Origin: Candidatus Methylomirabilota bacterium
GTDB taxonomy: Bacteria; Methylomirabilota; Methylomirabilia; Rokubacteriales; CSP1-6
Direction of reading: 5' to 3'
NCBI GenBank assembly: GCA_035281625.1
Contig: DATEDO010000105.1
Coordinates: 102 to 64,101 of the forward strand
DNA length: 64,000 nucleotides
Shown here: one piece after another, positions 5,220 to 53,180 of the stretch
Position numbering within the stretch: position 1 is the first letter of the stretch
Layout: each line of letters starts with the position of its first letter
The notes under the pieces: model-generated
What the model saw: only the letters and a program-made list of their open reading frames with translations
What the model was told of the DNA's origin: nothing
Databases searched by the model: none
Translations under genes and position numbers: made by a program

Positions 5220-5310
5220 GTCGTCCGGGCGGGTCCCGGCTTGACACCCCCTCGGGGGCCCGCCTATGCTCCTGCCACACCCCGCCCCGCGGCGGGTGGA
5301 GGTGGGACTC

Positions 5311-10656: not shown

Positions 10657-10679
10657 CGCGCGCCGGGTCAGGACCGCGT

Positions 10680-11138: not shown

Positions 11139-11168
11139 GCGGATGCTAGGCCCCGGCGGGCGAGCCTG

Positions 11169-11420: not shown

Positions 11421-11968
11421 GCTTCCCTTCCCGCGCCCGAAGCCGCGCGGCGCCGCGCCAGCGCGGCGGCCCCCACGAGCGCCGCGGTCGGCAGCCAGAC
11501 CCACACGATCTCGCTCGTGATGGTGCGAAGCCCCCACTCGCTCACGATGTCGAGGCCGATGGGCGACACCACGAGAGGGCGCCAGGGGAAGAAGTAGCGC
11601 GTGTGGTCGAACGGCGCGAGAAAGGCGACCCCCGGCCCGCCATTGGTGAAGGCGTCGAGGAAGCCGTGGGAGGCCATGGCGAGGAAGTAGTAGCCCCAGA
11701 GCCAGGGGAGCGGCAGCCCCAGCGGGCGATGCGCCAGTCGCGCCACCATGTACGACACGAGCGCCGCGGTGGGGAAGCCGTGCGTGATGCCGCGATGGGC
11801 CCACGGCGTGCCCCAGGGGATGCCGAGCGGCCAGGCAACGACGTCGGCGTCGGGCAGGATCGAGAGTCCGGCGGCGAGCAGCCAGAAGAGCGGGGGCATC
11901 GGCCGGGAGCGGGTGAGGACACGCCCCACGCCGCAGGCCACGACGGCGTGGGTCAGGATCGTCGGCAT
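11417..11968 (-). CDS. Metal-dependent hydrolase, DUF457/YdjM-like inner membrane protein
   Basis: MPTILTHA...PDAD...HRGITHG...SHGFLDAFT motifs. Confidence 0.8.
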   Translation of the reverse strand: MPTILTHAVVACGVGRVLTRSRPMPPLFWLLAAGLSILPDADVVAWPLGIPWGTPWAHRGITHGFPTAALVSYMVARLAHRPLGLPLPWLWGYYFLAMASHGFLDAFTNGGPGVAFLAPFDHTRYFFPWRPLVVSPIGLDIVSEWGLRTITSEIVWVWLPTAALVGAAALARRRAASGAGREA

Positions 11969-12006
11969 CGGCGCCGGAGAGGCATCAGCGGTAGAATACC
12001 CTCCTC

Positions 12007-12672
12007 ATGGCGTTCACCGACACCTTGTGGAAATCCATCGACGGGATCTACGGCGCGATCCTGCGCCACCCCTTCCTGGCGGGCCTCGCCGACGGCTCGC
12101 TCCCGCGGGAGAGCTTTCGATTCTACGCCGTCCAGGACGCGCTCTACCTGCGCGACTTCGCCCGCGCCCTGTCGGTGGCGGCGGCCCGGGCTCCGCAGGA
12201 CGACTGGATCATCATGTTCAACGAGCACGCCGCCGGCGCGCTCAAGGTGGAGCGGGCGCTCCACGAGTCCTTCTTCAAGGAGTTCGGCCTCACGCCCGCC
12301 GAGGTGGCGGCCACCCCGCTCGCCCCCACCAACCTCGCCTACACCTCGTATCTCCTCGCGGTGGCCAACGGGGCGCCCTTCCACGAGAACGTGGCCGCGC
12401 TCCTGCCCTGCTACTGGGTTTACTGGGAAGTGGGCAAGGAGCTCGAGCGCCGCGGCTCGCCGGATCCCCTCTACGCGCGGTGGATCGGCACCTACGCCTC
12501 GGGGGAGTTCGGCGCCCTCGTGGAGGCCGTGCTGGACGCCACCAACATCATGGCCGAGCGCGTGGGCGACGCCGAGCGCGAGACCATGCGCCGGCACTTC
12601 CTCACCACCAGCCGCTACGAGTGGATGTTCTGGGACATGGGCTGGCGGCGCGAGGCCTGGCCGGTCTCCTGA
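12007..12672 (+). CDS. tenA: TenA-family thiaminase II / aminopyrimidine aminohydrolase
   Basis: HPFLAGLADGSLPRESFRFYAVQDALYL...LLPCYWVY...YEWMFWD. Confidence 0.9.
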   Translation: MAFTDTLWKSIDGIYGAILRHPFLAGLADGSLPRESFRFYAVQDALYLRDFARALSVAAARAPQDDWIIMFNEHAAGALKVERALHESFFKEFGLTPAEVAATPLAPTNLAYTSYLLAVANGAPFHENVAALLPCYWVYWEVGKELERRGSPDPLYARWIGTYASGEFGALVEAVLDATNIMAERVGDAERETMRRHFLTTSRYEWMFWDMGWRREAWPVS

Positions 12673-12699: not shown

Positions 12700-13800
12700 T
12701 CAGCCCGCGGGCTTCAGCGCGGTCAGGTTGTAGACGCTCACCGGGCGCGTGAAGCCCTTCAGCGGCATCTCACCGACCGATTCCGACTCCACGAGATCCT
12801 CGACCGTGCCGACGAGCTTGCGTGACACGAGGATCTGCCCGGGCTTGGCCTCGCCGCACAGCCGGGCGGCGAGATTGGTGACGGTGCCGATGGCACCGTA
12901 GTCCCAGCGGCCCTCGAACCCGATGGCGCCGATGGTGGCGTACCCCTGCGCGATGCCCACGCCGAAATCGAGCTCGTAGCCGCGCTTGCGCCAGCCCTTC
13001 ATGAGCTCGTCCACGCGCCCGCGCATGGCCAGCGCCATGCGCACCGCTCGCTCCTGCGGGTTCGGCACCAGTATGGGGTCGTTGAAGAAGATCATCATGC
13101 CGTCGCCGGTGAAGCGCTCCAGCGTCCCCTCGTGGGCGAGGATCAGCTCCCCCATGGCCGCGTGGTACTCGCGGAGCACCCCCATCACCTCTTCCGGCTC
13201 CGCGGTCTCGGCGAAGGCGGTGAACCCCCGCAGGTCGATGAAGACCACCGTGACCTCCCGCCGGTGGCTCTTCAGCGGGTCGTCGGCGCCGCCGTGCACG
13301 ATGGCCTCGGCGAGGTGCGGCGAGAAGAACCGCTTGAGCCGGCCCAGGCGCTCGAGCATGCCGACCTGCTCCGTCACCCGCGCCTCCAGCGTGCGGTTCA
13401 GCTCGGCGAGCTGGTCCCACAGGGACTTCACCCGCATGAGCGAGCGCACCCGCGCCAGGAGCTCCGGCTGATTGATGGGCTTGGTGAGGAAGTCGTCCGC
13501 CCCGGCATCGATTCCCTTCACCCGCTCCTGAGCGGGGTCGAGGGCGGTGACCATGACCACCGGCAGCATCGCGGTGGCGGGGTTCTCGCGGAGCTTCTTG
13601 CACACCTCGTAGCCGCTCATGCCGGGCATCATCACGTCGAGGAGGACCAGATCCGGCGGCGTCCGGTCGATCGTCTCGAGCGCCTCCGCCCCCGACGCGG
13701 CGGTGGTGACCGCGTAGCCCTTGGCGCTCAGGAGATCGCTCAGGAGCTTGAGGTTGACCGGCGTATCGTCGACCACCAGGATGCGGGTCGGCTCGCTCAT
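12700..13800 (-). CDS. Response regulator receiver fused to a class III adenylate/guanylate cyclase
   Basis: REC domain (ILVVDD...LLDVMMPGMSG...TKP) followed by a CHD domain (VVFIDLRGFT...GDGMMIFF...GTVTNLAARL). Confidence 0.92.
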   Translation of the reverse strand: MSEPTRILVVDDTPVNLKLLSDLLSAKGYAVTTAASGAEALETIDRTPPDLVLLDVMMPGMSGYEVCKKLRENPATAMLPVVMVTALDPAQERVKGIDAGADDFLTKPINQPELLARVRSLMRVKSLWDQLAELNRTLEARVTEQVGMLERLGRLKRFFSPHLAEAIVHGGADDPLKSHRREVTVVFIDLRGFTAFAETAEPEEVMGVLREYHAAMGELILAHEGTLERFTGDGMMIFFNDPILVPNPQERAVRMALAMRGRVDELMKGWRKRGYELDFGVGIAQGYATIGAIGFEGRWDYGAIGTVTNLAARLCGEAKPGQILVSRKLVGTVEDLVESESVGEMPLKGFTRPVSVYNLTALKPAG

Positions 13801-14186
13801 GTCCGCGCGCTCCCCGGCCGGTCCAGGACCTCGCGCACGAGGTCGAGGAACGGGCGAATGCTGATGGGCTTGGACTGATAGGCGTCGAAGCCGGCGGCGA
13901 GGATCTTCTGCCGGTCCTGGGTCATGGCGGAGGCGGTCACCGCGATGACGGGGATGCCCGCGGTCGCGGGGTCCGCGCGAAGCTGGCGCAGGGCCTCGAT
14001 GCCGTTGATACCGGGGAGCTGGATGTCCATCAGCACCAGCGCGGGACGCTGCTCGCCGGCCAGGCGGACCCCGTCCTCGCCGGTCTCCGCCTCCACGAGC
14101 CGATAGCCCTTGGCGGTCAGCACGTCACGCACCAGCTTGCGGTTCTTGTCGTTGTCCTCGACGACGAGGATCAGCTCACCCGCCAT
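13797..14186 (-). CDS. Single-domain response regulator (REC)
   Basis: ILVVEDN...LMDIQLPGING...SKP. ATGA overlap with the next gene. Confidence 0.92.
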   Translation of the reverse strand: MAGELILVVEDNDKNRKLVRDVLTAKGYRLVEAETGEDGVRLAGEQRPALVLMDIQLPGINGIEALRQLRADPATAGIPVIAVTASAMTQDRQKILAAGFDAYQSKPISIRPFLDLVREVLDRPGSART

Positions 14187-17100
14187 GGTGACCTCGCGAG
14201 ATCGGGATGGTGAAGGTGAAGGTGGAGCCCTGTCCGACCTGGCTCTTCACCCAGATCCGCCCGCCGTGGAGCTCCACGAACTTGCGGGCGAGGGCGAGGC
14301 CCAGGCCGGTGCCCTCGTGCTTGCGCGCGTAGTCGGTCCCCACCTGACGGAACTCCTCGAACACCGCCTCGTGGTCCTCCGGCGCGATGCCGACCCCGGT
14401 GTCCGTCACCGAGATCTCGGCGGTGCCGTTGGCCACCGCCGCGCGCACGTCGATGCGCCCGCCCTCCGGCGTGAACTTCACCGCGTTCGAGAGAAGGTTC
14501 AGGAGCACCTGCTTGATCTTGCGCTCGTCCCCGCTGATCTCGCCGAGCCTCGGATCCACCGCCCGCTCCACCGTGATGCTCCGCCGGAGCGCCCGCTCGC
14601 GGACGAGGACCAGGGTGTCGTCGATGGCCTGGGGAAGATCGAAGTCGCCCGCCTCCAGCTCCATGCGGCCGGCCTCGATCTTGGCGAGGTCGAGGATGTC
14701 GTTGATGAGCGAGAGCAGGTGGCGCCCCGACGACAGGATGTCCTGGAGGTACTCCTCCTGCTTCTCGTTCACCTCGCCGAAGAGCCGCTCCAGCATCACC
14801 TCGGAGAAGCCGATGATGGCGTTGAGGGGGGTGCGCAGCTCGTGGGACACGCTGGCGAGGAACTCGGACTTGTGCTGGTTGGCGACCTCGAGCTGCCGGC
14901 CCTTGTCCTCGATCTCGCTGAAGAGGCGCGCGTTCTGGATGGCGAGGGCCGACTGGGTGGCGAACGTGCTCAGGAGCTCGACGATGCGGGGCGGAAACTC
15001 GCCGGCTACGCGGCGGTTCACCACCAGCGCGCCCACCACCTCGTCCTCGCTCACGAGCGGCACCGCGAGGAGGGAGCGGTAGCCGAACCGCAGCAGCGCG
15101 GCGCGGATCCGGCTCTCGTAGGCATGGGTGTCGCCGACGTCGGCAACCTGGACGGGCGCGCGCGTCGCCGCCGCCCGTCCCACCGCGCCCTCGCCGTACA
15201 CGAGCGTGGTCGCGCGTAGCGCCGCCACGAAGTCGTCGGGGAACCGATCGGTCGCCCAGAGGCGGAACGCCTGGGTGGCCGCGTCGAACTCGTAGATGGC
15301 GCCCCCGTCCGTCTCCGCGAGCTGATTGGCCCGCGCCACGATGGCCGCCAGCACGACCTCGAGATCGAGCGTCGACGAGATGGCGCGGCCGACCTCGCCG
15401 AGCGCCTGCAGCTCGCCCACCGAGCGGGTCAGCTCGGCGGTGCGCGACTGCAGCTCGGTGAAGAGCCGCACGTTCTCGATGGCGATCACCGCCTGGTCCG
15501 CGAACGTCTGGAGCAGCGCGATCTGGGCGTCGGTGAACGGGCGGACCTGGGTGCGTCGGATCACCACCGCACCGATACCGGCGCCCTCGCGCAGGAGGGG
15601 CACGGCGAGGAGGCTGCGCGTACCCGTCCTCGCCTGGGCCGCCTTGTGAGCGGGATACTCAGTGTCTACGAGAGCGGCCAGATCAGGCAGATTGATCACG
15701 CGTCGCTCGAGCACGGCCCGCGCGAATATGTACTCGTGGTCAAGCGGCGCCCGAGTCGGGACGTAGCTCGGGATGGGGCCGTACTGGGTCACGACCACAA
15801 TCTCGTCGCCTTCCACCTGCCAGATCTGGGCATCATTGGCGTCGCACAGCCGGGCCGCCGTCTCCGCCACCGCCTCGAGCACCGGCTTGACGTCCGTCGG
15901 CGATGACGAGATCACCCGGAGGATCTCGGCGGTCGCCGTCTGCTGCTCCAGCGCCTCGGTGATGGTACGATTCTTCTCTTCCAGCTCCTTGAACAGACGC
16001 ACGTTCTCGATGGCGATGACCGCCTGGTCGGCGAAGGTCTGGAGCAGCGCCAGGTGCTCGTCCGAGAATAGCCCGGGCTCTCCGCGCGCGAGCACGATAC
16101 AGCCGAGGGGGCTGCCTTCACGGAGCATCGGCACCGCGACGGTGCCCCGCGGCCGCTCCGGATTGTCGCCGATCCAGCGCGCCTGCACGCCGGGCTCGGC
16201 CATGTAGTCCGCGGTCTGCACGACCTGCCGGTCGCGAATGGCCCGCGCGGCCAGGCTTCCGTCGCCCGGCGGCATCGGGAAGCGCTGGCGGACGACCTCG
16301 AGCTGAGGGGGCGGCCATTGATGGGACGTCACGAAATGCACGAGGCCGCCCTCGAACCGGAACACGCCGCCGAACTGCGCCCCACACAGGCGCACCGCGC
16401 TCGACAGCACGGTGGCGAAGACCGGCTGCACGTCGGTCGGGGACGAAGAGATCACCCGCAGGATCTCGGCCGTGGACGTCTGCTGCTCCAGCGCCTCGGT
16501 GATCGTGCGATTCTTCTCCTCCAGCTCCTTGAACAGGCGCACGTTCTCGATCGCGATGACCGCCTGGTCGGCGAAGGTCTGGAGCAGGGCGATCTGCCTT
16601 GGCGAGAACGCCCCCGCCTCGGCGCCCGTGACGGTGAGGACCCCGATCGGCTTGCCATCCAGCAGCATCGGCACGGCGAGGACGCTCAAGTAGGCCGCCG
16701 CCTGCGCGAGGGCATCGAGCCGGTACTCGGTGTCCTCACGGATGTCCGGAATGTAGACGACAGTCCGGCTCAGCACCGCGCGAGTGGTCGCGCCCTCCCG
16801 GCTCGGAGGCATCGGGTAGCTGCGCCGGACGACCTCGACCGCTTCCGGCCTCAGGCTATGGGACGCCGCGATGTGGATGAGCTCACCGTCGAAGCGGTAG
16901 ACCCAGCCGGTCGTGGCCCGGCACAGGTCCAGGGCCTTGGCGGCGATGGAATCGAAGACTGGCTGAACGTCGGTCGGGGAGCTCGAGATCACGCGAAGGA
17001 TCTCCGCGGTCGCCGTCTGCTGCTCCAGGGACTCCGAGAGCTCCCGGGTGCGGTCCTCGACCTTCTGCTCGAGCGTCGCGTACGACTCGCGGAGCCGCCC

Positions 17101-18132
17101 CGTCATCTGGTTGAATTCGTCGGCGAGGGTTTCCAGCTCGTCGCCGCTGCGCAGATCGATGCGGTGGCCGAGGTCGCCGGCGCCGATCTTGGCCGCGCTC
17201 TCCTGGAGCACCTGGATGGGCCGGGCCATGCGCCGGCCGAGGAAGGCGCTCACCACCACCGAGAGCACGATGCCCGCGACCACCAGGATGCCGGTGCTCC
17301 GGGCGGACGCGCGCAGCGGCTCGAATGCCTCCTCCAGCGGCTGCTCGACGAACACCACCCAGCCCAGCGGCCCGATCGTCGAGTGGGCGGTGAGCACCTC
17401 GCGGCCCTTGGGGTCGCGCGCGATCGTCACCGGCTCGTGGCCCGGCGTGAGCGCGGCCTTCACCTGCTCGAGATTCGCGAGGCTGGTCTTCTGGAGCACC
17501 ACGCTGATGTCGGGGTGCGCGATGAGGACGCCGTTGCGGTCCACCGTGTAGGCCAGGCCGGCCTTGCCGATCTTGATCTGCGAGATCACGTCCAGGATGA
17601 ACTTGAGGTTGATCTCGGCGACGGTGACGCCGCCGCCGCTCTGGGGCATGGCGATGCTCATGTAGGGCTCGGAGTCCTTGCGGAAGTACACCGGCCCGAA
17701 GTACGTGCGCCCCTTCTTGGCCTCCAGGAACCGGGGGTCCTGGGAGTAGTCGGTCTGGCTGGCCACCACCTCCATGGCCAGCCGCGAGATGCGGAGCTGC
17801 TCCCGCCCCAGGCTGTCGAGATGGCTCAGCTCGGTGATGGGCTGCACCTGGCGCTGGAGCCGGTAGGAGTCCTGACGGCGCTGATCCAGGGCCGCCGGCG
17901 AGGCCACGGGATGCGTGGTCCAGCCGAGCTGACGCTCGATCTCCTTCACGAAGGTCTCGATCCGCGAGGCGGCGGCGCGGGCCTTCTCGGCCTGCAGGGC
18001 GACGAGGGCGGCCTTGCTCTCGTTGTAGGACGTGTAGAGCTGGACGGCGCCGCTGGCGAGGAGCGCGCCGGTGACGAGGGCGACCAGGGCGACCACGTAC
18101 TTCCGCGACAGCCGGCGGCGCGTGCCCATCAT
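14176..18132 (-). CDS. Sensor histidine kinase: TM-Cache-like-TM-HAMP, four GAF domains, HisKA, HATPase_c
   Basis: Start trimmed to ATG 18132 (MMGTRRRLSRKY, then a TM helix), 4 nt after the upstream stop. H-box SHELRTPLN; G-box GTGLGLALA. Confidence 0.92.
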   Translation of the reverse strand: MMGTRRRLSRKYVVALVALVTGALLASGAVQLYTSYNESKAALVALQAEKARAAASRIETFVKEIERQLGWTTHPVASPAALDQRRQDSYRLQRQVQPITELSHLDSLGREQLRISRLAMEVVASQTDYSQDPRFLEAKKGRTYFGPVYFRKDSEPYMSIAMPQSGGGVTVAEINLKFILDVISQIKIGKAGLAYTVDRNGVLIAHPDISVVLQKTSLANLEQVKAALTPGHEPVTIARDPKGREVLTAHSTIGPLGWVVFVEQPLEEAFEPLRASARSTGILVVAGIVLSVVVSAFLGRRMARPIQVLQESAAKIGAGDLGHRIDLRSGDELETLADEFNQMTGRLRESYATLEQKVEDRTRELSESLEQQTATAEILRVISSSPTDVQPVFDSIAAKALDLCRATTGWVYRFDGELIHIAASHSLRPEAVEVVRRSYPMPPSREGATTRAVLSRTVVYIPDIREDTEYRLDALAQAAAYLSVLAVPMLLDGKPIGVLTVTGAEAGAFSPRQIALLQTFADQAVIAIENVRLFKELEEKNRTITEALEQQTSTAEILRVISSSPTDVQPVFATVLSSAVRLCGAQFGGVFRFEGGLVHFVTSHQWPPPQLEVVRQRFPMPPGDGSLAARAIRDRQVVQTADYMAEPGVQARWIGDNPERPRGTVAVPMLREGSPLGCIVLARGEPGLFSDEHLALLQTFADQAVIAIENVRLFKELEEKNRTITEALEQQTATAEILRVISSSPTDVKPVLEAVAETAARLCDANDAQIWQVEGDEIVVVTQYGPIPSYVPTRAPLDHEYIFARAVLERRVINLPDLAALVDTEYPAHKAAQARTGTRSLLAVPLLREGAGIGAVVIRRTQVRPFTDAQIALLQTFADQAVIAIENVRLFTELQSRTAELTRSVGELQALGEVGRAISSTLDLEVVLAAIVARANQLAETDGGAIYEFDAATQAFRLWATDRFPDDFVAALRATTLVYGEGAVGRAAATRAPVQVADVGDTHAYESRIRAALLRFGYRSLLAVPLVSEDEVVGALVVNRRVAGEFPPRIVELLSTFATQSALAIQNARLFSEIEDKGRQLEVANQHKSEFLASVSHELRTPLNAIIGFSEVMLERLFGEVNEKQEEYLQDILSSGRHLLSLINDILDLAKIEAGRMELEAGDFDLPQAIDDTLVLVRERALRRSITVERAVDPRLGEISGDERKIKQVLLNLLSNAVKFTPEGGRIDVRAAVANGTAEISVTDTGVGIAPEDHEAVFEEFRQVGTDYARKHEGTGLGLALARKFVELHGGRIWVKSQVGQGSTFTFTIPISRGHHGG
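15440..17045 (-). repeat. Intragenic tandem duplication (period about 540 nt) of GAF modules and their linkers
   Basis: 15901-16060 and 16441-16600 are near-identical at the nucleotide level. The protein motif LLQTFADQAVIAIENVRLF(K/T)EL occurs 3 times, and LEQQT(A/S)TAEILRVISSSPTDV occurs 3 times. Confidence 0.9.
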
Positions 18133-18136
18133 GGCG

Positions 18137-19597
18137 TCATCTCGCCAGCCGCTCCGCGCGGAGGGCGGTGCGCCGCACCTTGCCGTCGTCGCCGCGCAGG
18201 GGCGTCGTGACGAACTCGTAGGTGCGCGGGCGCTTGTACTTGGCGAGCCGCTCGGCGAGGAAGCCCTCGAGCGCGTGGCCGTCCAGCCCGCCCTGCGCCT
18301 GCACGATGGCGTGCACGGCATTGCCGTACTCGTCGTCGGGCAGGCCGATCACGCACGACGACGCGACCGCCGGGTGCTCGTCGAGCGCGGCCTCGATCTC
18401 GGCCGGATAGACGTTGGCGCCGCCCACCAGGATCATGTCGGTGTCGCGATCGCTCAGGTAGACGTAGCCCTCCGCGTCGATCCGTCCCATGTCCCCGAGC
18501 GACTCCCAGCCGTCGTCCCGCGCCTTCGGCGTCGCGCCGACGTAACGGTAGGGCGGCGGCGCGTCCGGGCCCCGGCGCATCCAGATCTCCCCCACCTCGC
18601 CCGGCGGCAGCGCGCGGCCGTCGCGATCGAGCACCCGCATCTCGCCCAGCACGGGACGGCCCACCGAGCCGCGGTGGGTCAGCCACTCCTCGCCCGAGAT
18701 CACCGTGAAGGACTGCGCCTCGGTTCCGCCGTAGAGCTCGAGGACGCGCTCGGCGCCGAGCCACCCGATCCACGCGTCCTTCAGCCACACCGGACACGGC
18801 GCCGCCATGTGCATGACGACCTTCAGGCTGGAAAGGTCGTGGCTCGTGCGCTCGGCCTCGGGCAGGCGCCAGATCCGGTGGAGCATGGTGGGCACCGCGT
18901 ACATCCAGTCCACGCGATGCCGCTCCACGAGCTCGAGGGCGTGGGCGGGGTCGAAGCGCGGCATCACGACCAGGTGGTTGCCGTTGAGGAGAGCGAGGAG
19001 CGACGTCACGAAGGGCCCGTTGTGATAGAGCGGCCCCGTGACGAGATGCACGCCGTCCGCGGGAATGCGAAGGAGCGCGGCGAATCCGCAGATCGCCTCC
19101 CAGGTCGCCGCCTGGGTGGCCACGATGAGCTTCGGCCGGCCCGTGCTGCCGCCCGAGGTGGGCGCCTTGAAGGAGGCGGCGACGGCCGGAGGCAGCGGCT
19201 CCGCCGAGAGCCCGGGATCGGGCTCGAAGCCCGCGGGCACCGTGGCGCGCCCCGTCGCTTCGCCGGGATCGACGCCTACCACCAGCGAGGGGTTCGCCAG
19301 CTCGATGATGGCGCGGCGCTCGGCCGCGGGCAGGCGCGACGAGATGGGCTGCGGGGTCGCGCCGAGCTTCCACGTCGCCACCATGGCCTCGTAGAACGCC
19401 GGCCCATTCGGGAGACCGATGGTCACGAACGAGTCGCGCGTGACGCCCCGCGCCGCGAAGGCCCGCGCCAGGCGGTTCGACCGCGCCTCGAGCTCCGCGC
19501 GGGTGAGGGTGTGGCCCTCGCACGTGATGGCGGGGCGGCGCGGCTCGGCGGCCGCGAGCGCGCCGATCTGGACGCCGAGCGGCGTCTCGTCGCTCAT
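18137..19597 (-). CDS. AMP-dependent acyl-CoA synthetase/ligase
   Basis: TSGGSTGRPK AMP-binding motif, GEIWMRG, and YKRP near the C-terminus. AGGAGG RBS. Confidence 0.92.
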   Translation of the reverse strand: MSDETPLGVQIGALAAAEPRRPAITCEGHTLTRAELEARSNRLARAFAARGVTRDSFVTIGLPNGPAFYEAMVATWKLGATPQPISSRLPAAERRAIIELANPSLVVGVDPGEATGRATVPAGFEPDPGLSAEPLPPAVAASFKAPTSGGSTGRPKLIVATQAATWEAICGFAALLRIPADGVHLVTGPLYHNGPFVTSLLALLNGNHLVVMPRFDPAHALELVERHRVDWMYAVPTMLHRIWRLPEAERTSHDLSSLKVVMHMAAPCPVWLKDAWIGWLGAERVLELYGGTEAQSFTVISGEEWLTHRGSVGRPVLGEMRVLDRDGRALPPGEVGEIWMRRGPDAPPPYRYVGATPKARDDGWESLGDMGRIDAEGYVYLSDRDTDMILVGGANVYPAEIEAALDEHPAVASSCVIGLPDDEYGNAVHAIVQAQGGLDGHALEGFLAERLAKYKRPRTYEFVTTPLRGDDGKVRRTALRAERLAR

Positions 19598-47417: not shown

Positions 47418-47567
47418 GCGGCGCGCGCGACGTGAGCGGGCGGGAAAATATGGCGTCCCGTGACGCGCGGCGGCGCGGCCGGCGTAGGACTTACACGGGC
47501 GGCGTGTAGGGATTACATCGTCGACTACCGGCGTCCGCCTCCGTGACCGGCAGCCGCGGCGCCGACC

Positions 47568-48686
47568 TCATCCGTGCCGGCGTGCGGCGCCATCTGATGA
47601 GCGAGTTCGGTCTGCTGCGCGCGGGCGGCTCGGCGCCCGGGGCGTCGCGGGGCCGCCGAGCAGCGCGGTGAGGCGCGGGCGCGCGCCCGCCTCGATTTGC
47701 TCCCGCGTGCACTGGCGCGGCGCCTTGTCGGGCCGCCAGCGGACGAAGCGCGTGCCGTGGCGGAAGCGCCCGCCGCTGACGTGATCGTAGCCGACTTCCA
47801 CGACCAGCCGCGGCGCCAGCGGCACCCACTCGCCGGAGCGCTCGGTGCTCCAGCGGCTGGGGCCGCCCGGCGCGTTGCCGGTGAAGCCGGAGCCGCCCAT
47901 CAGCGGCCGCAGCTTCCCGAGGAGCGCTCGCCGGTCGGCCACGCTGAAGCCGGACGTGAAGCCGACGTGGTCGAGCCGGCCCTGGCCGTCGTAGAGGCCG
48001 AGCAGGAGCGAGCCCACCACCTTCCCCGCGGAGGCGTACCGGAAGCCGCCCACCACGCAGTCGGCGGTGCGGAGACGCTTCACCTTCACCATCGCGTCCC
48101 GCGTGCCGGACGCGTAGGGAGCGTCCAGGCGCTTGGCGACGACGCCGTCCAGGTTGCCGCCGGCCCGCGAGAGCCAGGACTGCGCGGCCTCGAGCTCGGT
48201 GGCCGCGGGCGAGAGTCGAATGGTGGCGGCGCGGGCGAGATGCGCGCGGGCGAAGGCCTCGAGGCGCGGCCGCCGCTCCGCGAGAGGTCGCTCGACGAGC
48301 GGGCGCCCGTCGGCGTCCACGAGGAGATCGAAGGCGATGAGCCAGGCCGGCGTCTCCTCGGCAAGCCGGCGCACGCGCGAGGGCGCGGGGTGGATGCGCT
48401 GGAGCAGATCGTCGAAGGAGAGCCGGCCGTCGACGGGGACGACCAGCTCCCCATCCAGCACGAAGCGCCGGGCCGGGAGCGCGCCCACCGACGCCACCAC
48501 GTCCGGGAAATAGCGCTCCAGCGGCTTGCCCGCCTTGGACCGGAGCGCGACCGACTCGCCATCGCGGAAGACGAGGCAGCGGAATCCATCCCACTTGGGC
48601 TCGTACTGCCAGCCGGGTCCGGTGGGGATCGCGTCCACGAGCCGCGCCTCCATGGGCGGGTAGTCCGGGCGGAGCGGCAGCGTCAT
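47568..48686 (-). CDS. ligD: ATP-dependent DNA ligase (stand-alone LigD ligase domain)
   Basis: YEPKWDGFRC (adenylation Lys), LDGEL, DGVVAKR and VKVKR motifs. ATGA overlap with the upstream gene. Confidence 0.92.
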   Translation of the reverse strand: MTLPLRPDYPPMEARLVDAIPTGPGWQYEPKWDGFRCLVFRDGESVALRSKAGKPLERYFPDVVASVGALPARRFVLDGELVVPVDGRLSFDDLLQRIHPAPSRVRRLAEETPAWLIAFDLLVDADGRPLVERPLAERRPRLEAFARAHLARAATIRLSPAATELEAAQSWLSRAGGNLDGVVAKRLDAPYASGTRDAMVKVKRLRTADCVVGGFRYASAGKVVGSLLLGLYDGQGRLDHVGFTSGFSVADRRALLGKLRPLMGGSGFTGNAPGGPSRWSTERSGEWVPLAPRLVVEVGYDHVSGGRFRHGTRFVRWRPDKAPRQCTREQIEAGARPRLTALLGGPATPRAPSRPRAADRTRSSDGAARRHG

Positions 48687-49636
48687 GCCACGCGCTCGAG
48701 TCGGAAGCGGCCGGTCCGGGCCAGCATCGGCGCGTAGAGATCGCCCAGGCGCTGGAGCCGGGCGGGCGCATTGTCGATCCGGAAGTCCTCGACGCGCGCG
48801 CCGCCGGCCACCTCGTCCCACGTGAGGGGCATGGACACGGGCGCGCGCGGGCGGGGGCGCACCGAGTACACCGAGGCGAGCGTGCGTCCCCACGCGTTCT
48901 GGTTGTAGTCCACCAGCACCCGGCCCGCCGGCCGCCGGGCCACGCGGTACTCCGCGGTCACGAGGCTCGGCCGCTCGCGGGCGAGCGTCTGCGCCACCGC
49001 TTTGGCCACCCGCCACACCGTCTTCTGGTCGGGGCCGCGCACGATGGGCACGTAGATGTGGATGCCCCGCGAGCCGGTGGTCTTGGGATAGGCGGACATG
49101 CCCACGTCCTCGAGCGCGGCGCGCACGAGCAGGGCCGTCTCGCGCACCCGCTCGAACCCGGCGCCCGGCACCGGGTCGAGATCGAAGTGGAGATAGTCCG
49201 GCCGGTGGACGTCGTCGCAGCGCGCATACCACTGATTGAGATCGATGCAGCCGAGGTTCACCACCCACAGCAGTGACAGGAGGTCCTGCACCATTGGGAA
49301 GTCGATCACGTTGCCGGACGCATGATCGATGCGGCACGTCTCGATCCAGTCGGGGCGCGGCGCCGGCGCGCGCTTCATGAAGAAGAACGGGCCGGCCGCG
49401 CCATCCGGGTAGCGCTTCATGACCATGGCGCGGTCGCGGAGATGCGGCAGCAGGTACGGCGCCACCGCCACGTAGTAGCGCAGGAGGTCGCCCTTGGTCA
49501 GGCGGGGGCGCGCCCAGAACGGCTTGCGCAGGTTGGTGAGGGTGACGGCGCGACCGCCCAGCCGCACCTCCACGGTGTCCCGGTCGGGCGGGACGACCGC
49601 CGCGGGGTCGAGGGCGGGCCGCGCGCGCGGGCTCAT
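48683..49636 (-). CDS. LigD polymerase/primase domain protein (archaeo-eukaryotic primase fold)
   Basis: DYLHFDLDP, KTTGSRGIHIYVP and VLVDYNQN motifs. Confidence 0.92.
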   Translation of the reverse strand: MSPRARPALDPAAVVPPDRDTVEVRLGGRAVTLTNLRKPFWARPRLTKGDLLRYYVAVAPYLLPHLRDRAMVMKRYPDGAAGPFFFMKRAPAPRPDWIETCRIDHASGNVIDFPMVQDLLSLLWVVNLGCIDLNQWYARCDDVHRPDYLHFDLDPVPGAGFERVRETALLVRAALEDVGMSAYPKTTGSRGIHIYVPIVRGPDQKTVWRVAKAVAQTLARERPSLVTAEYRVARRPAGRVLVDYNQNAWGRTLASVYSVRPRPRAPVSMPLTWDEVAGGARVEDFRIDNAPARLQRLGDLYAPMLARTGRFRLERVA

Positions 49637-50247
49637 GGCGCGCGCACGAGACGGGGCGGTCGCACGCCGTGGCGCACCGCGCCGCGCACGCCGACGTAGT
49701 CGAGCTCCGCGCCCACGCGGGCGCAGCGCAGGAGCAGGCCTCCGCGGCTCATGTCGCCGCGCCCCACGAAGTCGGCGGGGAAGCGCAGGCGCTCGCCGAA
49801 GACCTCCAGGAGCGGGTCGAGATACTTGCCGGTGGCGATGCTGCCCAGGAGCACCACGTCGCAGCGCGCGCCCAGGAGCGGCGCGAAGCGGAGCGCGTCG
49901 CGCCGGAGGGGCTCCACATAGCGCGGGTTCCCCGCGTCGATGTCCACTTCGGCGAAGCGGCGCAGCCGCGCCAGGTCCACCATCTCCACCGCCGGCACGA
50001 GCCCGTCGGTGGGGGTGATCACGAGCACGCCGGAATGGCCGGCGGGCGGACGGGCGAAGGCCTCGGCGTAAGCGAGCTTGCCGCGGAAGTAGAGCCCGCT
50101 GAGGAACGAGAAGACCTCGCCCAGGGGCGCCCCGCCGGGGCCGCGCAGGCGCTGGGCCAGATCGAAGCGGGCCGCGGGGCTGAACACGAGCCGGGCGCGC
50201 TCGCCGCCGCAGTGCGCGGGCGAGAGCAGGAAGATCCGCCGCTTCAC
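49633..50247 (-). CDS. Hypothetical protein (204 aa) embedded in the PolX-LigD operon
   Basis: GTG 50247 overlaps the PolX stop (GTGA), and its own stop overlaps the LigD-pol ATG (ATGA). Sequence: RIFLLSPAHCGGERARLV...VVLLGSIATGKYLDPLL...FVGRGDMSRGGLLL. No family recognised. Confidence 0.65.
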   Translation of the reverse strand: MKRRIFLLSPAHCGGERARLVFSPAARFDLAQRLRGPGGAPLGEVFSFLSGLYFRGKLAYAEAFARPPAGHSGVLVITPTDGLVPAVEMVDLARLRRFAEVDIDAGNPRYVEPLRRDALRFAPLLGARCDVVLLGSIATGKYLDPLLEVFGERLRFPADFVGRGDMSRGGLLLRCARVGAELDYVGVRGAVRHGVRPPRLVRAP

Positions 50248-51986
50248 CGGGGGCCCACCGGCGCCACCGCCCGGGCGAATCCGGCCGTGTTCAGGGTGTT
50301 CAGCACCTCGTCGCGTCGCACCCAGCCGCGCCGCGCGATGATCGTCCCGTAGCGGAGGTTGTCCAGCTCGTCGACGGCGTGGGCATCCGTCGAGATGACG
50401 AAGCGGAGCCCGCGCTCGCGCGCGGCCCGCAGCCAGCGGGGCGCCATGTCGAGCCGGTGCGGATCCCCGTTGATCTCGATGGCCGCGCGCGAGGACGCCG
50501 CCGCATCCAGAACCGCCTCCACGTCGACCTCGATGGGCGGCCGCGAGGGGATGAGGCGCCCCAGGGCGTGGCCCCAGATCTTGAAGCAGGGATGAGCCAT
50601 CGCGCGCGTGAGCCGTCGCGTCATCTCCGCCGGCCCCATCCGGTGCCGCTGATGGATGCTGGCGATGATGACGTCGAGGCGCTCGAGAACGGCGTCGGGG
50701 TAGTCGAGCGCTCCGTCGGCGAGGATGTCGGACTCGGTGCCGCGGAGCAAGCGCACCGACACCTTCTCCTGCACGCGGTCGATCTCGTCCCACTGCGCGC
50801 GCAGCCGGTCCACGGTGAGGCCGTTCGCGTAGGTCGCGGTGGGCGAGTGGTCGGTGATCGTGAGGTACCGCATGCCGCGCGCCTCCGCCGCGCGCGCCAT
50901 CTCCTCGACCGTGTTGCGGCCGTCCGAGTACACGGTGTGGCAGTGCACGAAGCCCTGCACGTCGTGCATCGCCACCAGATCGTCGGGCAGGCGGCCGGCG
51001 AGAGCGGCCTCGATCTCGCCGGTGTCCTCGCGAAGCTCGGGCGGAATGAACGGCAGGCCCAGATGCGCGTAGAGCTCCGGCTCGTCCTTCGCGGACAGCG
51101 GGGTGTCCCGCCCCGCTCGCGTGAGACCCGCGGGCCCGAGGCGCAGCCCCCGCGCTTCCGCGATGCCGCCGAGGCGCGTCAGGTGCGCGCGGGCGCCGGT
51201 GGCGTGGAGGAGCGCGGCGGCGTGGCGGTCCGGACGGGTCACCCGCACCTCGAGGGGCAGCCCGCTCTCGAGCACCGCCCGGTGAAGGTCGGGCCGGCTC
51301 TCGGTGATCGACACCACGCCGGGCAGCGCGAGCAGGTGCCCCCGCGTCGCCGCCGGCGTGCCGGAGGCGGCCACGATCTCCAGCCGGTCCACCAGCTCGG
51401 CGCCCCGGCGGAGATCGCCCGCGATCTCGACCGCGGTCACCCCGGGCGCCCGCCGCAGGTGCGCGAGGACGGGATCGGCGTCGGCGAGCGCGTGCGACAG
51501 GAGGGCGCGCGCCGGTGCCGGCTCCTCCAGCCGCCGGATGGCTTCGAGGAGGCGCGCTTCCGTCTTCTCGCCGAATCCCTTCACGCCGCGGACACGGCCG
51601 GCCTCCGCCGCCGCCCGGAGGTCGGCGATGGTCTCCACGCCGAGGGCCTCGTGGAGCGCGGCGATCCGGGCCGCGGGGAGCCGGAGGCGAGCCAGCTCGG
51701 CCGCGCCGGGCGGATGCCCCGCGCGCAGCGCTTCGAGGGTCTCCGATCGGCCCGTCTGGCGCAGCTCGCTGATGCGCGCGGCGAGGCCGGCCCCGATGCC
51801 CTGCAGCCCGGTGAGCCGCCCCTCGGCGGCGAGTCGCTCGAAGGTCGCGTCGTCGAGCGACTCCAGGACCCGGGCGCCGCGCGCGTAGGCGCGCGCCTTG
51901 AAGGCGTCCTCGCCGGACAGGTCGAGGAGGCGTCCCATCTCGCGCAGCGCCCGCGCGACGCCGAGCCGGTCGTTAGCAAGGGCCAT
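50244..51986 (-). CDS. polX: Family X DNA polymerase with C-terminal PHP phosphoesterase domain (PolX)
   Basis: HhH motifs (GIGAGLA, GFGEKT). PHP motifs HCHTVYSDG, ITDHS and STDAH. Confidence 0.9.
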   Translation of the reverse strand: MALANDRLGVARALREMGRLLDLSGEDAFKARAYARGARVLESLDDATFERLAAEGRLTGLQGIGAGLAARISELRQTGRSETLEALRAGHPPGAAELARLRLPAARIAALHEALGVETIADLRAAAEAGRVRGVKGFGEKTEARLLEAIRRLEEPAPARALLSHALADADPVLAHLRRAPGVTAVEIAGDLRRGAELVDRLEIVAASGTPAATRGHLLALPGVVSITESRPDLHRAVLESGLPLEVRVTRPDRHAAALLHATGARAHLTRLGGIAEARGLRLGPAGLTRAGRDTPLSAKDEPELYAHLGLPFIPPELREDTGEIEAALAGRLPDDLVAMHDVQGFVHCHTVYSDGRNTVEEMARAAEARGMRYLTITDHSPTATYANGLTVDRLRAQWDEIDRVQEKVSVRLLRGTESDILADGALDYPDAVLERLDVIIASIHQRHRMGPAEMTRRLTRAMAHPCFKIWGHALGRLIPSRPPIEVDVEAVLDAAASSRAAIEINGDPHRLDMAPRWLRAARERGLRFVISTDAHAVDELDNLRYGTIIARRGWVRRDEVLNTLNTAGFARAVAPVGPR

Positions 51987-51998: not shown

Positions 51999-53180
51999 TC
52001 AGATCAATGGCCGCAGGTCGACCCGACGCCCCTCGGCGGCGGACAGATACGCCCCATAGATGACGGCCGTGACGTCGCGGGCGAGCGCCCCGCCGGCGAG
52101 CGGCTCGCGCTTGGTCGCCACCGCCTCCACGAAGTCCTGGATCTCCTGCGGGTAACCGGAGGTCCAGTCCTCGTCGGGCTGTGGGCTGGACCAGCCCGCC
52201 TTGGTCTCGAGCTTCTCCACGAGGTACTCGGAGCCGAAGACGGCGGGGTCCGGGGCGTAGGCCTGCACGGTGTCGTTGGGATTGATGTTGCAGATCACGA
52301 CCGCCTTGGCGCCATAGACGATCATCTGGTTGCGGATGCCGCCCAGCACGGTGTCCGCGGCGGAGATCTGGGCCACCGTGCCGTCGTCGAAGCCGATCAG
52401 CATGGTGCCCCAGTCCTCGACGTCGGCTCCCTCCACCGTGTTGAGGTAGCGCGGCGTGGTCGCGCGGAACGTGTCGGTGGCGGCAAGGTTCGCGGTCTCC
52501 GCGCTCACCGACGCCGGCCGGATGGCGCGGCCGCGCAGCCGCTGTCCCTCGTCGGCCTTGAGGTAGAGCGCGGCGCCGAGGGGATGGCAGGCCTTGCCGA
52601 TGAGCGAACCGCCGCCGCCGGTGACCCACCGCTTGTTCACCGGGGCGTGCGTGCCCCCGTGGCTCTCCTCGCCCACGAGGCGGAGAATCGGCCCGCCGGC
52701 GGCGGCGAGGAGGCGCCGCGCCTTCTGGATGGGCGGGGCGTACACCCAGTTCTCCGCATAGCAAAGGCGCACGCCCGCCTGCGCGCAAGCCTGGAGCACC
52801 GCGTCGGCCGAGGCCAGGGCGCTGCGCAGCATCTCGGCGCGGGGCGTCGCGACCTCGCCGAAGAAGCCGGTCAAGGGCTTTTCCACGATGACGTGCTTGC
52901 CGGCGCGCGCGGCTTCGATGGCCATCGACGCGTGGAGATGCGAGGGAACGCAGAGGTCGACCAGCTCCACCGCGCGGTCGTCGAGCACCGCGCGGAAGTC
53001 GGCGACGGCCCGCCGCACCGCGAACTCGCGGGCGAACGCCTCGGCGCGCGCGGGACGCGCCGCCGTCACCGCCGCCAGGTCGACCTCGATGCCGCGGACG
53101 TGCCGATAGGCCTCCGCGTGCAGGCGGGCCACGAAGCCCGCTCCGACCACTCCGACGCCGATCCGTTTACGCTCCGCCAT
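51999..53180 (-). CDS. Gfo/Idh/MocA family oxidoreductase
   Basis: IGVGVVGAGFVARLH Rossmann motif and VIVEKPL. Confidence 0.9.
   Translation of the reverse strand: MAERKRIGVGVVGAGFVARLHAEAYRHVRGIEVDLAAVTAARPARAEAFAREFAVRRAVADFRAVLDDRAVELVDLCVPSHLHASMAIEAARAGKHVIVEKPLTGFFGEVATPRAEMLRSALASADAVLQACAQAGVRLCYAENWVYAPPIQKARRLLAAAGGPILRLVGEESHGGTHAPVNKRWVTGGGGSLIGKACHPLGAALYLKADEGQRLRGRAIRPASVSAETANLAATDTFRATTPRYLNTVEGADVEDWGTMLIGFDDGTVAQISAADTVLGGIRNQMIVYGAKAVVICNINPNDTVQAYAPDPAVFGSEYLVEKLETKAGWSSPQPDEDWTSGYPQEIQDFVEAVATKREPLAGGALARDVTAVIYGAYLSAAEGRRVDLRPLI

Follow-up and report, generated by a model that had tools for sequence, protein, structure and literature searches.

Four consecutive minus-strand genes (positions 47568-51986) in a 64,000-nucleotide window, the whole stretch of DNA that was analysed, encode a PolX-PHP protein, a 204-residue protein of an unnamed family (U204), a primase-polymerase (Prim-Pol) and a DNA ligase (Table 1). 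The host is a Rokubacteria/Methylomirabilota-like bacterium. The operon is probably a chromosomal, co-transcribed module for the repair of single-strand breaks and short gaps, built on the LigC/Prim-PolC scheme and not on Ku-LigD, in which U204 would be a new subunit that binds DNA breaks or lesions and possibly heals the ends.

Table 1. The repair operon and its flanking features, in window positions
Feature	Position	Strand	Size or motif	Predicted product, or basis of the call
PolX-PHP gene	50244..51986	-	580 aa	noncanonical PolX
U204 gene	49633..50247	-	204 aa, GTG start	unnamed family
Prim-Pol gene	48683..49636	-	317 aa	stand-alone AEP primase-polymerase, LigD_Prim-Pol family
Ligase gene	47568..48686	-	372 aa	LigC-type minimal ATP-dependent DNA ligase
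PolX stop/U204 start overlap	50244..50247	-	GTGA	read base by base
U204 stop/Prim-Pol start overlap	49633..49636	-	ATGA	read base by base
Prim-Pol stop/ligase start overlap	48683..48686	-	ATGA	read base by base
Sigma-70-like promoter match	50338..50365	-	TGGACA-16-GATCAT	9/12 matches; consensus match only
Terminator-like hairpin	47453..47466	-		~100 nt downstream of ligase stop, before mreB; consensus match only
Oxidoreductase gene	51999..53180	-		Gfo/Idh/MocA family; ends 12 nt before PolX start

The gene row and its three overlaps, found in the ORF list and the sequence, are exactly as originally described. In high-GC operons, start/stop overlaps of four bases occur frequently; those seen here therefore indicate operon organisation and nothing more. 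The identical order PolX-U204-Prim-Pol-ligase is also present in loci L001-L004, L011 and L116, and L020 carries PolX-U204-Prim-Pol up to the contig end. The arrangement is thus not a one-off, and a real, conserved and co-transcribed repair module is supported. The promoter match, the sole site in 7.7 kb (0.1 expected from shuffles), falls within the 3'-terminal part of PolX, with U204 starting ~90 nt further downstream, and may be an internal promoter of an older U204-Prim-Pol-ligase core. The hairpin probably marks the operon end. The oxidoreductase gene may be co-transcribed with PolX; L001 has the same neighbour, and in L078, a related Rokubacteria MAG, a gene of this family is directly upstream of U204. 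Its membership in the repair module is doubtful.

The ligase consists of adenylation and OB domains only (Pfam DNA_ligase_A_M and A_C), with the KxDG motif at K31 and an Arg/Pro-rich tail of ~30 aa. It scores 463.8 bits against the LigC-type equivalog NF006078 (PRK08224; cut-off 296, residues 1-343) and 180.7 bits against the LigD-ligase model TIGR02779, below the cut-off of 227.75. By these scores the enzyme is LigC-type, and its earlier identification as a stand-alone LigD ligase domain is not supported.

The polymerase and the ligase are separate polypeptides, as had been described, according to both the ORF list and the domain search. The best PDB matches of the Prim-Pol (PF21686, LigD_Prim-Pol, 1.6e-88) are M. 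smegmatis Prim-PolC structures (6SA0/5OP0, 196 bits), with 5DMU (178) and M. tuberculosis LigD-Pol 2IRU (145) ranking lower. The conserved blocks FDLD (151), SRGIH (189) and VDYNQN (242) are presumably the AEP catalytic motifs, and the 5'-phosphate pocket is conserved (N, K, F for Y25, and K). Only ~16 residues follow the position that aligns with residue 288, and the chain therefore lacks Loop 3 (residues 313-333 in M. smegmatis), the element that gives Prim-PolC its gap specificity (PMC7442782). Judged by its sequence, the Prim-Pol has its nearest relative in the Prim-PolC of mycobacteria, though without this defining loop. An NHEJ-type polymerase role is equally compatible, since the score against TIGR02778 (ligD_pol) is 233, above the cut-off of 214.7.

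The PolX protein has an N-terminal 8-kDa/HhH domain, fingers, a degenerate palm, a thumb and an intact PHP nuclease domain. Pfam searches matched HHH_8, HHH_5, DNA_pol_B_thumb and PHP, and no palm; the NF006375 PolX model scored 405 bits, slightly below its cut-off of 426, and T. thermophilus PolX (3AU2) aligned end to end (2.8e-99). The catalytic D198, D200 and D243 of the T. thermophilus enzyme correspond to R201, E203 and E246. The triad is changed in all 6 of the 6 operon-linked orthologues (L001-L004, L011 and L020), where the PHP metal ligands (HCH..D, DH, E, H, H, DAH) are all kept, as they are here; the PolX of L034, which is not operon-linked, retains DLD...D. These features assign the protein to the known class of noncanonical PolXs, which lack polymerase activity, are 3'-5' exonucleases by experiment, and in some cases sit in LigD operons (PMC9226535). 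With the triad altered and the PHP ligands intact, it is probably an end-cleaning nuclease and not a gap filler; the gap filling once ascribed to it is unlikely.

No phosphoesterase (LigD_N) match was found in any of the four proteins, as had been stated. The operon had also been called Ku-less and end-joining-like. A tblastn search with three Ku probes (M. tuberculosis Ku, and Ku from L007 and L059) detected no Ku in the 64-kb window; the first description holds at the scale of the window, and a Ku gene may lie elsewhere in the genome. Ku was likewise not found in the 20-kb loci with the syntenic operon (L001, L002 and L004) or in 77 of the 80 U204-anchored loci. The second description is not the best fit: mycobacterial LigC and Prim-PolC act in Ku-independent excision repair (BER) and short-gap filling (PMC5663958, PMC7442782), and the lack of an adjacent Ku is therefore the expected state.

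These data also bear on a Ku-dependent NHEJ system with a split LigD, in which the Prim-Pol and ligase would be separated POL and LIG domains, the PHP domain of PolX would replace the phosphoesterase, Ku would be encoded elsewhere and U204 would be an accessory end-binding or end-processing factor. We consider this unlikely. The Prim-Pol does pass the ligD_pol cut-off and, having neither Loop 3 nor a long C-terminal extension, resembles the 301-303-residue PDB chains 5DMU and 2IRU; NHEJ genes are found together with noncanonical PolXs, whose nuclease was proposed to compensate for a nuclease-less LigD (PMC9226535). Ku adjoins a same-clade ligase in L183 and lies near U204 in L007 and L059, so the gene set can also sit beside NHEJ genes. 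However, the ligase scores far above the LigC cut-off and misses that for LigD ligases, and Ku is missing from the window, the syntenic loci and nearly all U204-anchored loci. Furthermore, the Rokubacteria relative L078 already has a LigD with all three domains, 3.5 kb from its U204 homologue, and the window operon thus looks like a second, different system.

The fourth component was rightly described as unannotated: U204 matches nothing in Pfam, NCBIfam, PADLOC or the PDB sequences and passes no curated family threshold. Over 8000 clusters at 90% identity match it, and at 50% identity there are at least 1583 representatives. An AF2 model (pLDDT 87, pTM 0.85) was compared with BFVD by Foldseek, and the top four matches were all of DUF6884/YaaA type (E 2.5e-4 to 2.6e-3, probability 0.99-1.00); KS14 gp8 was confirmed as DUF6884 (6.9e-17). 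The predicted fold is thus the "cantaloupe-fold" of YaaA (DUF328, PF03883) and DUF6884 (PF21818). In hhalign, the U204 family scored 33.5 against the DUF6884 profile (P=2e-4), compared with 11-15 for reversed and unrelated controls (P at least 0.25) and 42.5 for the accepted YaaA-DUF6884 pair under the same conditions; the U204 segment VLVITPxDGL was paired with the DUF6884 LSAxHGL block. Weak Pfam DUF6884 matches occur in 3 of 52 U204 members, and no other family recurs. Three motifs are colinear: i) strand 1 followed by S-P-A (YaaA "ISPAK"); ii) a strand followed by xxG[LV] (DUF6884 "LSAxxG" block); and iii) a G-R-G-x-M-S-R block (YaaA "ARGLMSR"). The hhalign comparison with the YaaA profile was not significant, and Foldseek against the PDB, which would be expected to include E. 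coli YaaA (5CAJ), gave nothing below E=0.037. On this evidence U204 is placed, as a distant relative, in the YaaA/DUF6884 DNA-binding superfamily.

U204 differs from these proteins in several respects. It passes neither Pfam model and, at 204 aa, is shorter than YaaA (258 aa). It does not keep the CxxxK motif of DUF6884: S9 occupies the Cys position, and the Lys is absent. Its own invariant residues (Ser9-Pro-Ala, Ser50, Tyr53, Lys57, Tyr60, Ser136, Lys141/Tyr142 and Arg168, with a Y53-x3-K57 pair) are grouped at the ends of strands and the N-termini of helices. The protein is basic (pI 10.5). DNA binding is the annotated and described role of E. coli YaaA, which is not known to have any catalytic activity. 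Other members are tied to DNA damage: DNA baits with abasic sites or ribonucleotides enriched for YfjM, of DUF6884 (PMC10220248, PMC11701544), and Caulobacter YaaA mutants are sensitive to MMC, UV and H2O2 (PMC10055390). No description of YaaA or DUF6884 within ligase/Prim-Pol/PNK-kinase gene clusters was found in the literature searched.

The co-occurrence of U204 with repair genes was surveyed in a sample of 80 GTDB species loci (76 informative). At 47 of the 76, U204 immediately precedes a LigC-like ligase, a Prim-Pol or both, with PolX in a subset. The orders are U204-ligase (30 of 80), U204-Prim-Pol-ligase (5), PolX-U204-Prim-Pol-ligase (4, plus 1 truncated) and U204-Prim-Pol (6, plus 1 truncated). 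The 80 loci come from six phyla (Rokubacteria, Verrucomicrobia, Acidobacteria, Gemmatimonadota, Planctomycetota and Chloroflexota) and from one MAG labelled Candidatus Dormiibacterota; the linked ones are from the first four phyla. A survey from the ligase side found the permuted orders Prim-Pol-ligase-U204 (L130, L157 and L164), Prim-Pol-ligase-U204-PNK kinase (L159) and U204-Prim-Pol-ligase-PolX (L141). The linkage is asymmetric, U204 being present in only 12 of 80 ligase-anchored loci. An AAA_33 kinase, whose sole PDB matches are mammalian PNKP (3e-14) and whose best NCBIfam matches are PNK-3'Pase and bacterial Pnkp, is fused to the N- or C-terminus of U204 in P0123, P0128, P0130 and P0147 and adjoins it in L051 and L079. 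U204 is thus a large, unnamed family whose genes neighbour those for DNA ligases, repair polymerases and DNA kinases in several soil bacterial phyla.

It is highly improbable that U204 has no function connected with DNA repair and is instead, say, a housekeeping protein binding small molecules or nucleotides that shares operons by chance or regulation. Most LigC-like ligase loci lack it, and at 29 of 80 U204 loci the neighbours are all housekeeping genes, with no repair gene among them (by sequence inspection, a Na+/H+ antiporter-like membrane protein, sulfotransferase-like and CBS-domain-like proteins and aspartate carbamoyltransferase). However, linkage in four phyla with variable gene order and overlapping start/stop codons, fusion to a DNA kinase, and the consistent recurrence of DNA-end enzymes as partners (ligase, Prim-Pol, PolX, PNK kinase, Ku/LigD) are hard to obtain without functional coupling.

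U204 might also be an enzyme and more than a DNA-binding subunit. As such it might carry out metal-independent 3'-end healing (3'-phosphatase or cyclic phosphodiesterase), be an AP/dRP lyase or a base-flipping glycosylase, and form a new bacterial kinase-and-healing pair with the PNKP-type kinase and a healing-and-sealing pair with LigC. This is possible, if on balance somewhat unlikely. The usual fusion partner of PNKP kinase is a 3'-phosphatase domain, and U204 is fused to such a kinase, on either side, in four independent representatives and adjoins one at three loci (L159 included). In Verrucomicrobia, U204 and the ligase are the entire module (30 species), and in the model the invariant Ser/Tyr/Lys/Arg residues are clustered as an active-site crevice would be. 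Base flipping into the DUF6884 pocket was predicted by Pfam curators (PMC11701544). On the other hand, none of the residues invariant among 52 members is Asp, Glu, His or Cys (the best of these are E44, E/D in 49/52, and D165, 45/52), no known hydrolase, lyase or glycosylase fold was matched, E. coli YaaA is described as a DNA binder, and the PHP domain already supplies 3'-end chemistry in this operon.

For the favoured single-strand break and short-gap repair module, we infer the activities, their order and the role of U204 as follows. U204 would bind the damaged site or broken terminus through its conserved crevice of invariant residues, and might process the terminus itself. The presumably polymerase-dead PolX would then dock on the nick or gap via its 8-kDa/HhH and thumb domains, and its intact PHP domain, by chemistry of the 3'-5' exonuclease, 3'-phosphatase or AP-endonuclease type, would remove 3' ends that are blocked or mismatched. 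The short gap would be filled by the Prim-Pol, held at the 5'-phosphate, and the minimal LigC-type ligase would seal the nick.

The scheme has counterparts in several known systems. In mammalian single-strand break repair a scaffold/sensor, a kinase, a polymerase X and a ligase act jointly, and kinase with ligase is the logic of classical end-healing and end-sealing. As in the PNKP/Pnkp-type systems (mammalian PNKP-XRCC1-Lig3, T4 Pnk-Rnl, bacterial Pnkp-Hen1), U204 relatives join a PNKP-type 5'-kinase and a ligase. The window operon has no kinase, however, and U204 has no similarity to HAD/calcineurin-type 3'-phosphatases or XRCC1, which makes the analogy a functional one only. Bacterial Ku-LigD NHEJ also combines a LigD_Prim-Pol-family AEP polymerase, an ATP-dependent ligase and a nuclease that cleans 3' ends, but in the window no Ku was found, the four proteins have no phosphoesterase domain, the ligase misses the LigD-ligase cut-off, and the modules are separate polypeptides. 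Noncanonical PolXs (Prostova et al. 2022, PMC9226535; PMC12926913) share the link to LigD-family operons, previously reported for Alphaproteobacteria; here the triad variant is R-E-E, variable among close orthologues, no palm deletion is evident in the full-length 3AU2 alignment, and PolX is accompanied by U204, a stand-alone Prim-Pol and a LigC-type ligase in place of a fused LigD. Mycobacterial LigC/Prim-PolC (Plocinski et al. 2017, PMC5663958; Brissett et al. 2020, PMC7442782) pairs a stand-alone AEP Prim-Pol with a minimal ATP-dependent ligase in an operon with no adjacent Ku, as in the window; the ligase passes the same equivalog model, and the Prim-Pol is nearest to Prim-PolC among solved structures, with the 5'-phosphate pocket kept and Loop 3 lost. 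The mycobacterial operon sometimes adds the lesion-recognition enzyme Fpg, which parallels the accessory gene here, whereas the present operon, in a different phylum, adds a presumably polymerase-dead PolX-PHP and U204, both absent from the mycobacterial system.

Four consecutive genes on the minus strand, encoding a PolX-PHP protein, a protein of 204 aa (U204, a name used here also for its family), a Prim-Pol and an ATP-dependent ligase, overlap at each of their three junctions. Read base by base, these junctions agree exactly with the GTGA, ATGA and ATGA overlaps of the original prediction. The segment is chromosomal (72% G+C), the remaining window genes scanned are metabolic or signalling, and the closest relatives bear Rokubacteria or Methylomirabilota names. 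The interval 12700-18321 (minus strand) encodes a 1381-aa sensor histidine kinase with Cache, HAMP, four GAF, HisKA and HATPase domains, and a single small ORF separates it from the next gene, a response regulator that carries a fused adenylate/guanylate cyclase domain. The Gfo/Idh/MocA-family gene beside the operon may belong to it or may be a remnant of older synteny. A gene of this family also lies directly upstream of U204 in a Rokubacteria MAG (L078, 8820-9896), at a site without PolX, Prim-Pol or ligase genes. The promoter match inside the operon would be consistent with a history in which PolX joined an older U204-PrimPol-ligase core.

Features of the four-gene operon and its flanks in the window
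Feature	Position	Strand	Details
Gfo/Idh/MocA-family oxidoreductase gene	51999-53180	-	ends 12 nt upstream of PolX
PolX-PHP	50244-51986	-	580 aa
Sigma-70-like promoter match	50338-50365	-	single, in 3' end of PolX gene, ~90 nt before U204; consensus match only
PolX/U204 junction	50247-50244	-	GTGA
U204	49633-50247	-	204 aa, GTG start
U204/Prim-Pol junction	49636-49633	-	ATGA
Prim-Pol	48683-49636	-	317 aa
Prim-Pol/ligase junction	48686-48683	-	ATGA
ATP-dependent ligase	47568-48686	-	372 aa
Terminator-like hairpin	47453-47466	-	~100 nt past ligase stop; consensus match only

The ligase scores 463.8 bits on the equivalog NF006078 (PRK08224; cut-off 296), which covers residues 1-343 of 372, and 180.7 bits on the LigD-ligase model TIGR02779, below its cut-off of 227.75. 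We take PRK08224 to be the LigC model, and on that basis the enzyme appears to be a LigC-type ligase and not a detached LigD ligase domain; the label "LigD-Lig" given to it originally is thus probably wrong. Its architecture is minimal, with adenylation and OB domains only (Pfam PF01068 and PF04679), and the KxDG adenylation motif reads KWDG (residues 31-34). Past the end of the NF006078 match is an Arg/Pro-rich C-terminal tail of ~30 aa (47568-47660, minus strand), which may be a low-complexity extension or the result of a slightly late stop. The tail varies in length among orthologues; the called product of the homologous locus L001 is 354 aa.

The polymerase belongs to the LigD_Prim-Pol family (Pfam PF21686, 1.6e-88) and passes the LigD-pol model TIGR02778 with 233.1 bits against a cut-off of 214.7. 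The closest solved structure is Prim-PolC of M. smegmatis (6SA0/5OP0, 196 bits), followed by the Methanocella NHEJ polymerase (5DMU, 178 bits) and the M. tuberculosis LigD polymerase domain (2IRU, 145). The 5'-phosphate pocket of Prim-PolC is formed by N20, K23, Y25 and K35 (PMC7442782), and the aligned residues here are N, K, F and K. Prim-PolC is defined by a C-terminal Loop 3 (residues 313-333, with P320, N321 and K324) that confers short-gap specificity (PMC7442782). In the alignment, residue 301 of the window protein pairs with Prim-PolC residue 288 and only ~16 of its 317 residues remain; therefore it has no Loop 3. The L001 orthologue is 319 aa. Judged by sequence, the enzyme is thus Prim-PolC-like, closest to Prim-PolC and with its pocket kept, yet not a full member of that family.

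The PolX protein aligns over its full length with T. thermophilus PolX (ttPolX, structure 3AU2; 2.8e-99); Pfam detects HHH_8 and thumb domains and finds no palm domain. By counted positions, the ttPolX catalytic residues D198/D200/D243 correspond to R201/E203/E246. The triad is also altered in the six operon-linked orthologues (loci L001-L004, L011 and L020), the first position being R or Q, the second E, D or V, and the third E, D or Q, while all six blocks of PHP metal-binding motifs are strictly conserved in the operon-linked set. These degenerate triads contrast with the intact DLD...D triad of a canonical PolX in L034, from a "Spartobacteria" MAG (Verrucomicrobia); this gene (3588-5294) does not adjoin U204 and lies ~5 kb upstream of a U204-ligase pair. 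Noncanonical PolX proteins, which in experiments lack polymerase activity and are Mn2+-dependent 3'-5' exonucleases, have already been reported beside LigD in Alphaproteobacteria (PMC9226535; PMC12926913). The window PolX matches this class in sequence. Of the two roles originally predicted for it, 3'-end cleaning is reasonable, the PHP motifs being intact, and gap filling is unlikely, because the R/E/E triad places it with enzymes found to be polymerase-dead (PMC9226535). The operon may be a natural example of division of labour, in which PolX would retain only the nuclease and synthesis would fall to the AEP polymerase two genes downstream.

As predicted, no phosphoesterase domain is present: Pfam finds no match to LigD_N (PF13298) in any of the four operon proteins. 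Three Ku probes detect no Ku within the 64-kb window, and the description "Ku-less" stands for that interval only. Among homologous loci, Ku lies 2 kb from U204 in L007 (12038-12793), U204 of L059 has both Ku and a LigD-like gene within 2 kb (8045-12123), and Ku is divergent from an adjoining LigC-like ligase in L183 (2182-4063). Because of these three cases, the LigC/Prim-Pol/U204 gene set is not always separate from NHEJ genes. Furthermore, the Rokubacteria locus L078 encodes a complete PE-Lig-Pol LigD of 888 aa (14097-16763, minus strand; LigD_N detected at 4.7e-43) 3.5 kb from the U204 homologue, with a metallo-beta-lactamase-fold gene in between. The operon could accordingly be read as a split LigD serving NHEJ with a Ku encoded elsewhere. 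The Ku neighbours in L183, L007 and L059, the Prim-Pol that passes the ligD_pol model and has no Loop 3, and the literature on PolX and NHEJ all point that way, but the ligase is of LigC type and Ku is absent from nearly all loci, and we regard this explanation as improbable. In mycobacteria, LigC and Prim-PolC form a Ku-independent apparatus for excision and short-gap repair, and some of the operons that encode them also include Fpg, a glycosylase that recognises lesions (PMC5663958). Given a LigC-type ligase and a Ku-independent scheme of this kind (PMC5663958), the designation "end-joining-like" is probably wrong.

The genomic linkage of U204 was followed in 80 GTDB species-representative loci anchored on U204, 76 of them informative and 4 on contigs too short to tell. 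Co-occurrence was counted by tblastn; GC3-based ORF calling misses U204 in about half of the lower-GC Verrucomicrobia loci. The most frequent arrangement is U204-ligase (30 loci, all from Verrucomicrobia, with ligases 60-64% identical to that of the window). U204-PrimPol-ligase occurs in 5 loci, U204-PrimPol in 6 (and 1 truncated), and the complete PolX-U204-PrimPol-ligase set in 4 (and 1 truncated); in 29 loci U204 stands among housekeeping genes. U204 is therefore linked to ligase and/or Prim-Pol in 47 of the 76 informative loci. The 80 loci come from Rokubacteria, Verrucomicrobia, Acidobacteria, Gemmatimonadota, Planctomycetota, Chloroflexota and one MAG labelled Candidatus Dormiibacterota, the linked ones being confined to the first four.

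The linkage is asymmetric. When 80 metagenome loci are anchored on the ligase, U204 is present in only 12, so it is an accessory of a subset of LigC/Prim-Pol modules and not their universal partner. The gene order also varies in this sample: PrimPol-ligase-U204 is found in three loci (L130, L157 and L164) and U204-PrimPol-ligase-PolX in one (L141). One same-strand cluster (L159, 3051-6298) differs from the window operon in both order and content, consisting of Prim-Pol, LigC-like ligase, U204 and a PNKP-type kinase. An AAA_33 kinase gene directly follows U204 in L051 and L079, and in four independent representatives U204 is fused to an AAA_33 kinase domain, on either side. The only PDB matches of this kinase partner are to mammalian PNKP (~3e-14), and its best NCBIfam matches are to PNK-3'Pase and bacterial Pnkp. 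A neighbourhood that persists while gene order changes, the fusions, and partners that are all enzymes of DNA nicks, gaps or ends together make a strong case for a role of U204 in DNA strand-break repair. A function outside repair altogether is very unlikely. One further representative (P0193) has a C-terminal GNAT acetyltransferase fusion, a single case. An apparent U204-ligase fusion (P0199) and a long N-terminus (P0207) were discarded, both looking like out-of-frame Arg-rich translation.

U204 is labelled "hypothetical protein" in every source that names it. The window protein has no match in Pfam, NCBIfam, PADLOC, PDB sequence or PDB profile searches, and a defence-system reading was rejected on the PADLOC result. 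Searches nevertheless reveal a large family, with more than 8000 clusters at 90% identity, at least 1583 representatives at 50% identity with E<=1e-3 (1244 of these with E<=1e-10), and at least 582 matches in GTDB species genomes. A tblastn search of phage and plasmid collections gave no meaningful matches.

AlphaFold2 predicts an alpha/beta fold for U204 with confidence (pLDDT 87, pTM 0.85). Against the PDB, Foldseek returned nothing below E=0.037 and only weak Rossmann-like or CARF-like matches (TM<=0.31); because of this, UDG-like, macro, SDR and ligase-DBD folds were rejected. Against a viral structure library (BFVD), the four top matches are a DUF6884 protein of mycobacteriophage Mendokysei (E 2.5e-4), a phage "YaaA" (3.3e-4), Burkholderia phage KS14 gp8 (6.1e-4) and an unnamed protein (2.6e-3), with probabilities of 0.99-1.00 and TM of 0.42-0.51 when query-normalised and up to 0.67 when target-normalised. 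KS14 gp8 is a bona fide DUF6884 member (6.9e-17), and E. coli YaaA matches DUF6884 weakly (8.9e-6). When a 52-sequence U204 alignment was compared by hhalign with a profile of 10 phage DUF6884 sequences, the score was 33.5 (P=2e-4, probability 46%), and the U204 "VLVITPxDGL" was paired with the DUF6884 "LSAxHGL" block. Controls with reversed profiles or with an unrelated ligase profile stayed at 11-15 (P>=0.25), and the accepted YaaA-DUF6884 pair scored 42.5 (P=1e-5) under identical conditions. No significant match was obtained between the U204 family and YaaA, as the single E. coli sequence or a 15-sequence profile, and the window protein does not reach the Pfam gathering threshold of PF03883 or PF21818. 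Weak DUF6884 matches appear in 3 of the 52 members (best E=0.024); no other family recurs. We consider it likely that U204 belongs, as a remote and distinct member, to the YaaA(DUF328)/DUF6884 "cantaloupe-fold" superfamily.

Thirteen residues are invariant across the 52 diverse members: S9, A11, S50, L52, Y53, K57, Y60, G135, S136, P157, G164, R168 and L173. None is acidic, His or Cys. At the CxxxK position of DUF6884, U204 has S9-P-A-x-x with no conserved Cys or Lys, whereas this S-P-A motif (S9-A11) is as in the YaaA "ISPAK"; the LSAxxG block is replaced by I-T-P-x-x-G, in which only G82 is nearly invariant. In the predicted model the invariant residues are placed where strands end and helices begin, the usual site of a phosphate- or ligand-binding crevice, which suggests that U204 may have one. 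DNA binding by U204 is supported indirectly, by its pI of 10.5 and by genomic context. A role of the superfamily in DNA damage has support from other members: DNA baits with abasic sites or ribonucleotides enriched B. subtilis YfjM (DUF6884) (PMC10220248), a cleft that binds DNA and flips a nucleotide is predicted for DUF6884 by the Pfam curators (PMC11701544), and mutation of yaaA makes Caulobacter sensitive to MMC, UV and H2O2 (PMC10055390). A minimal ligase with no DNA-binding domain would plausibly benefit from a nick or lesion binder acting in trans. U204 could also be an enzyme rather than a mere binder, a view that overlaps the binder model; the fusions to PNKP-type kinases and the two-gene U204-ligase modules speak for it, but there is no invariant acidic or His residue, and we hold it possible though doubtful.

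By analogy with the mycobacterial apparatus and from the domain evidence, a four-step scheme can be proposed in which all activities and their order are inferred. U204 would bind the lesion or broken terminus, and may process it. The presumably polymerase-dead PolX would then dock at the nick or gap, where its PHP nuclease would clean the 3' end. Gap filling would fall to the Prim-Pol, anchored by the 5'-phosphate, and sealing of the nick to the LigC-type ligase. LigC/Prim-Pol modules, noncanonical PolX and the operon link between PolX and LigD are already known. What is new is the four-gene combination, a new variant, and above all U204 as its fourth gene; in the literature searched, no description was found of a conserved association between an unnamed YaaA/DUF6884-like family and genes for ligase, Prim-Pol, PNKP-type kinase and PolX, no paper there covers both YaaA and LigC, and the few papers on DUF6884 are silent on such a link. 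The observation behind the original prediction is confirmed and its interpretation upheld in part, in that the module is genuine and its fourth component deserves attention.

Should U204 sense breaks or lesions, or heal DNA ends as an enzyme, it would supply a component that Ku-independent ligase pathways have lacked. It could then account for the way in which minimal ligases with no DNA-binding domain find their substrates, and it would open a tractable route to the molecular function of YaaA/DUF6884 proteins, which have been connected with survival of oxidative stress and DNA damage. With this finding, direct tests can be made of the function of a large dark-matter family, whose loci come mostly from uncultured soil bacteria, and of that of the YaaA superfamily. 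A bolder reading, which we put forward tentatively and think unlikely as a whole, is that U204 founds a new bacterial family of strand-break repair proteins with a YaaA/DUF6884 fold and its own catalysis at damaged termini or lesions (metal-independent 3'-end healing, AP/dRP lyase or base-flipping excision), an obligatory first step for minimal LigC-type ligases, Prim-Pols and PNKP-type kinases. If true, this would be the first biochemical function for the YaaA superfamily, and bacteria would possess a modular single-strand-break repair kit analogous to the eukaryotic PNKP-XRCC1-Pol beta-Lig3.
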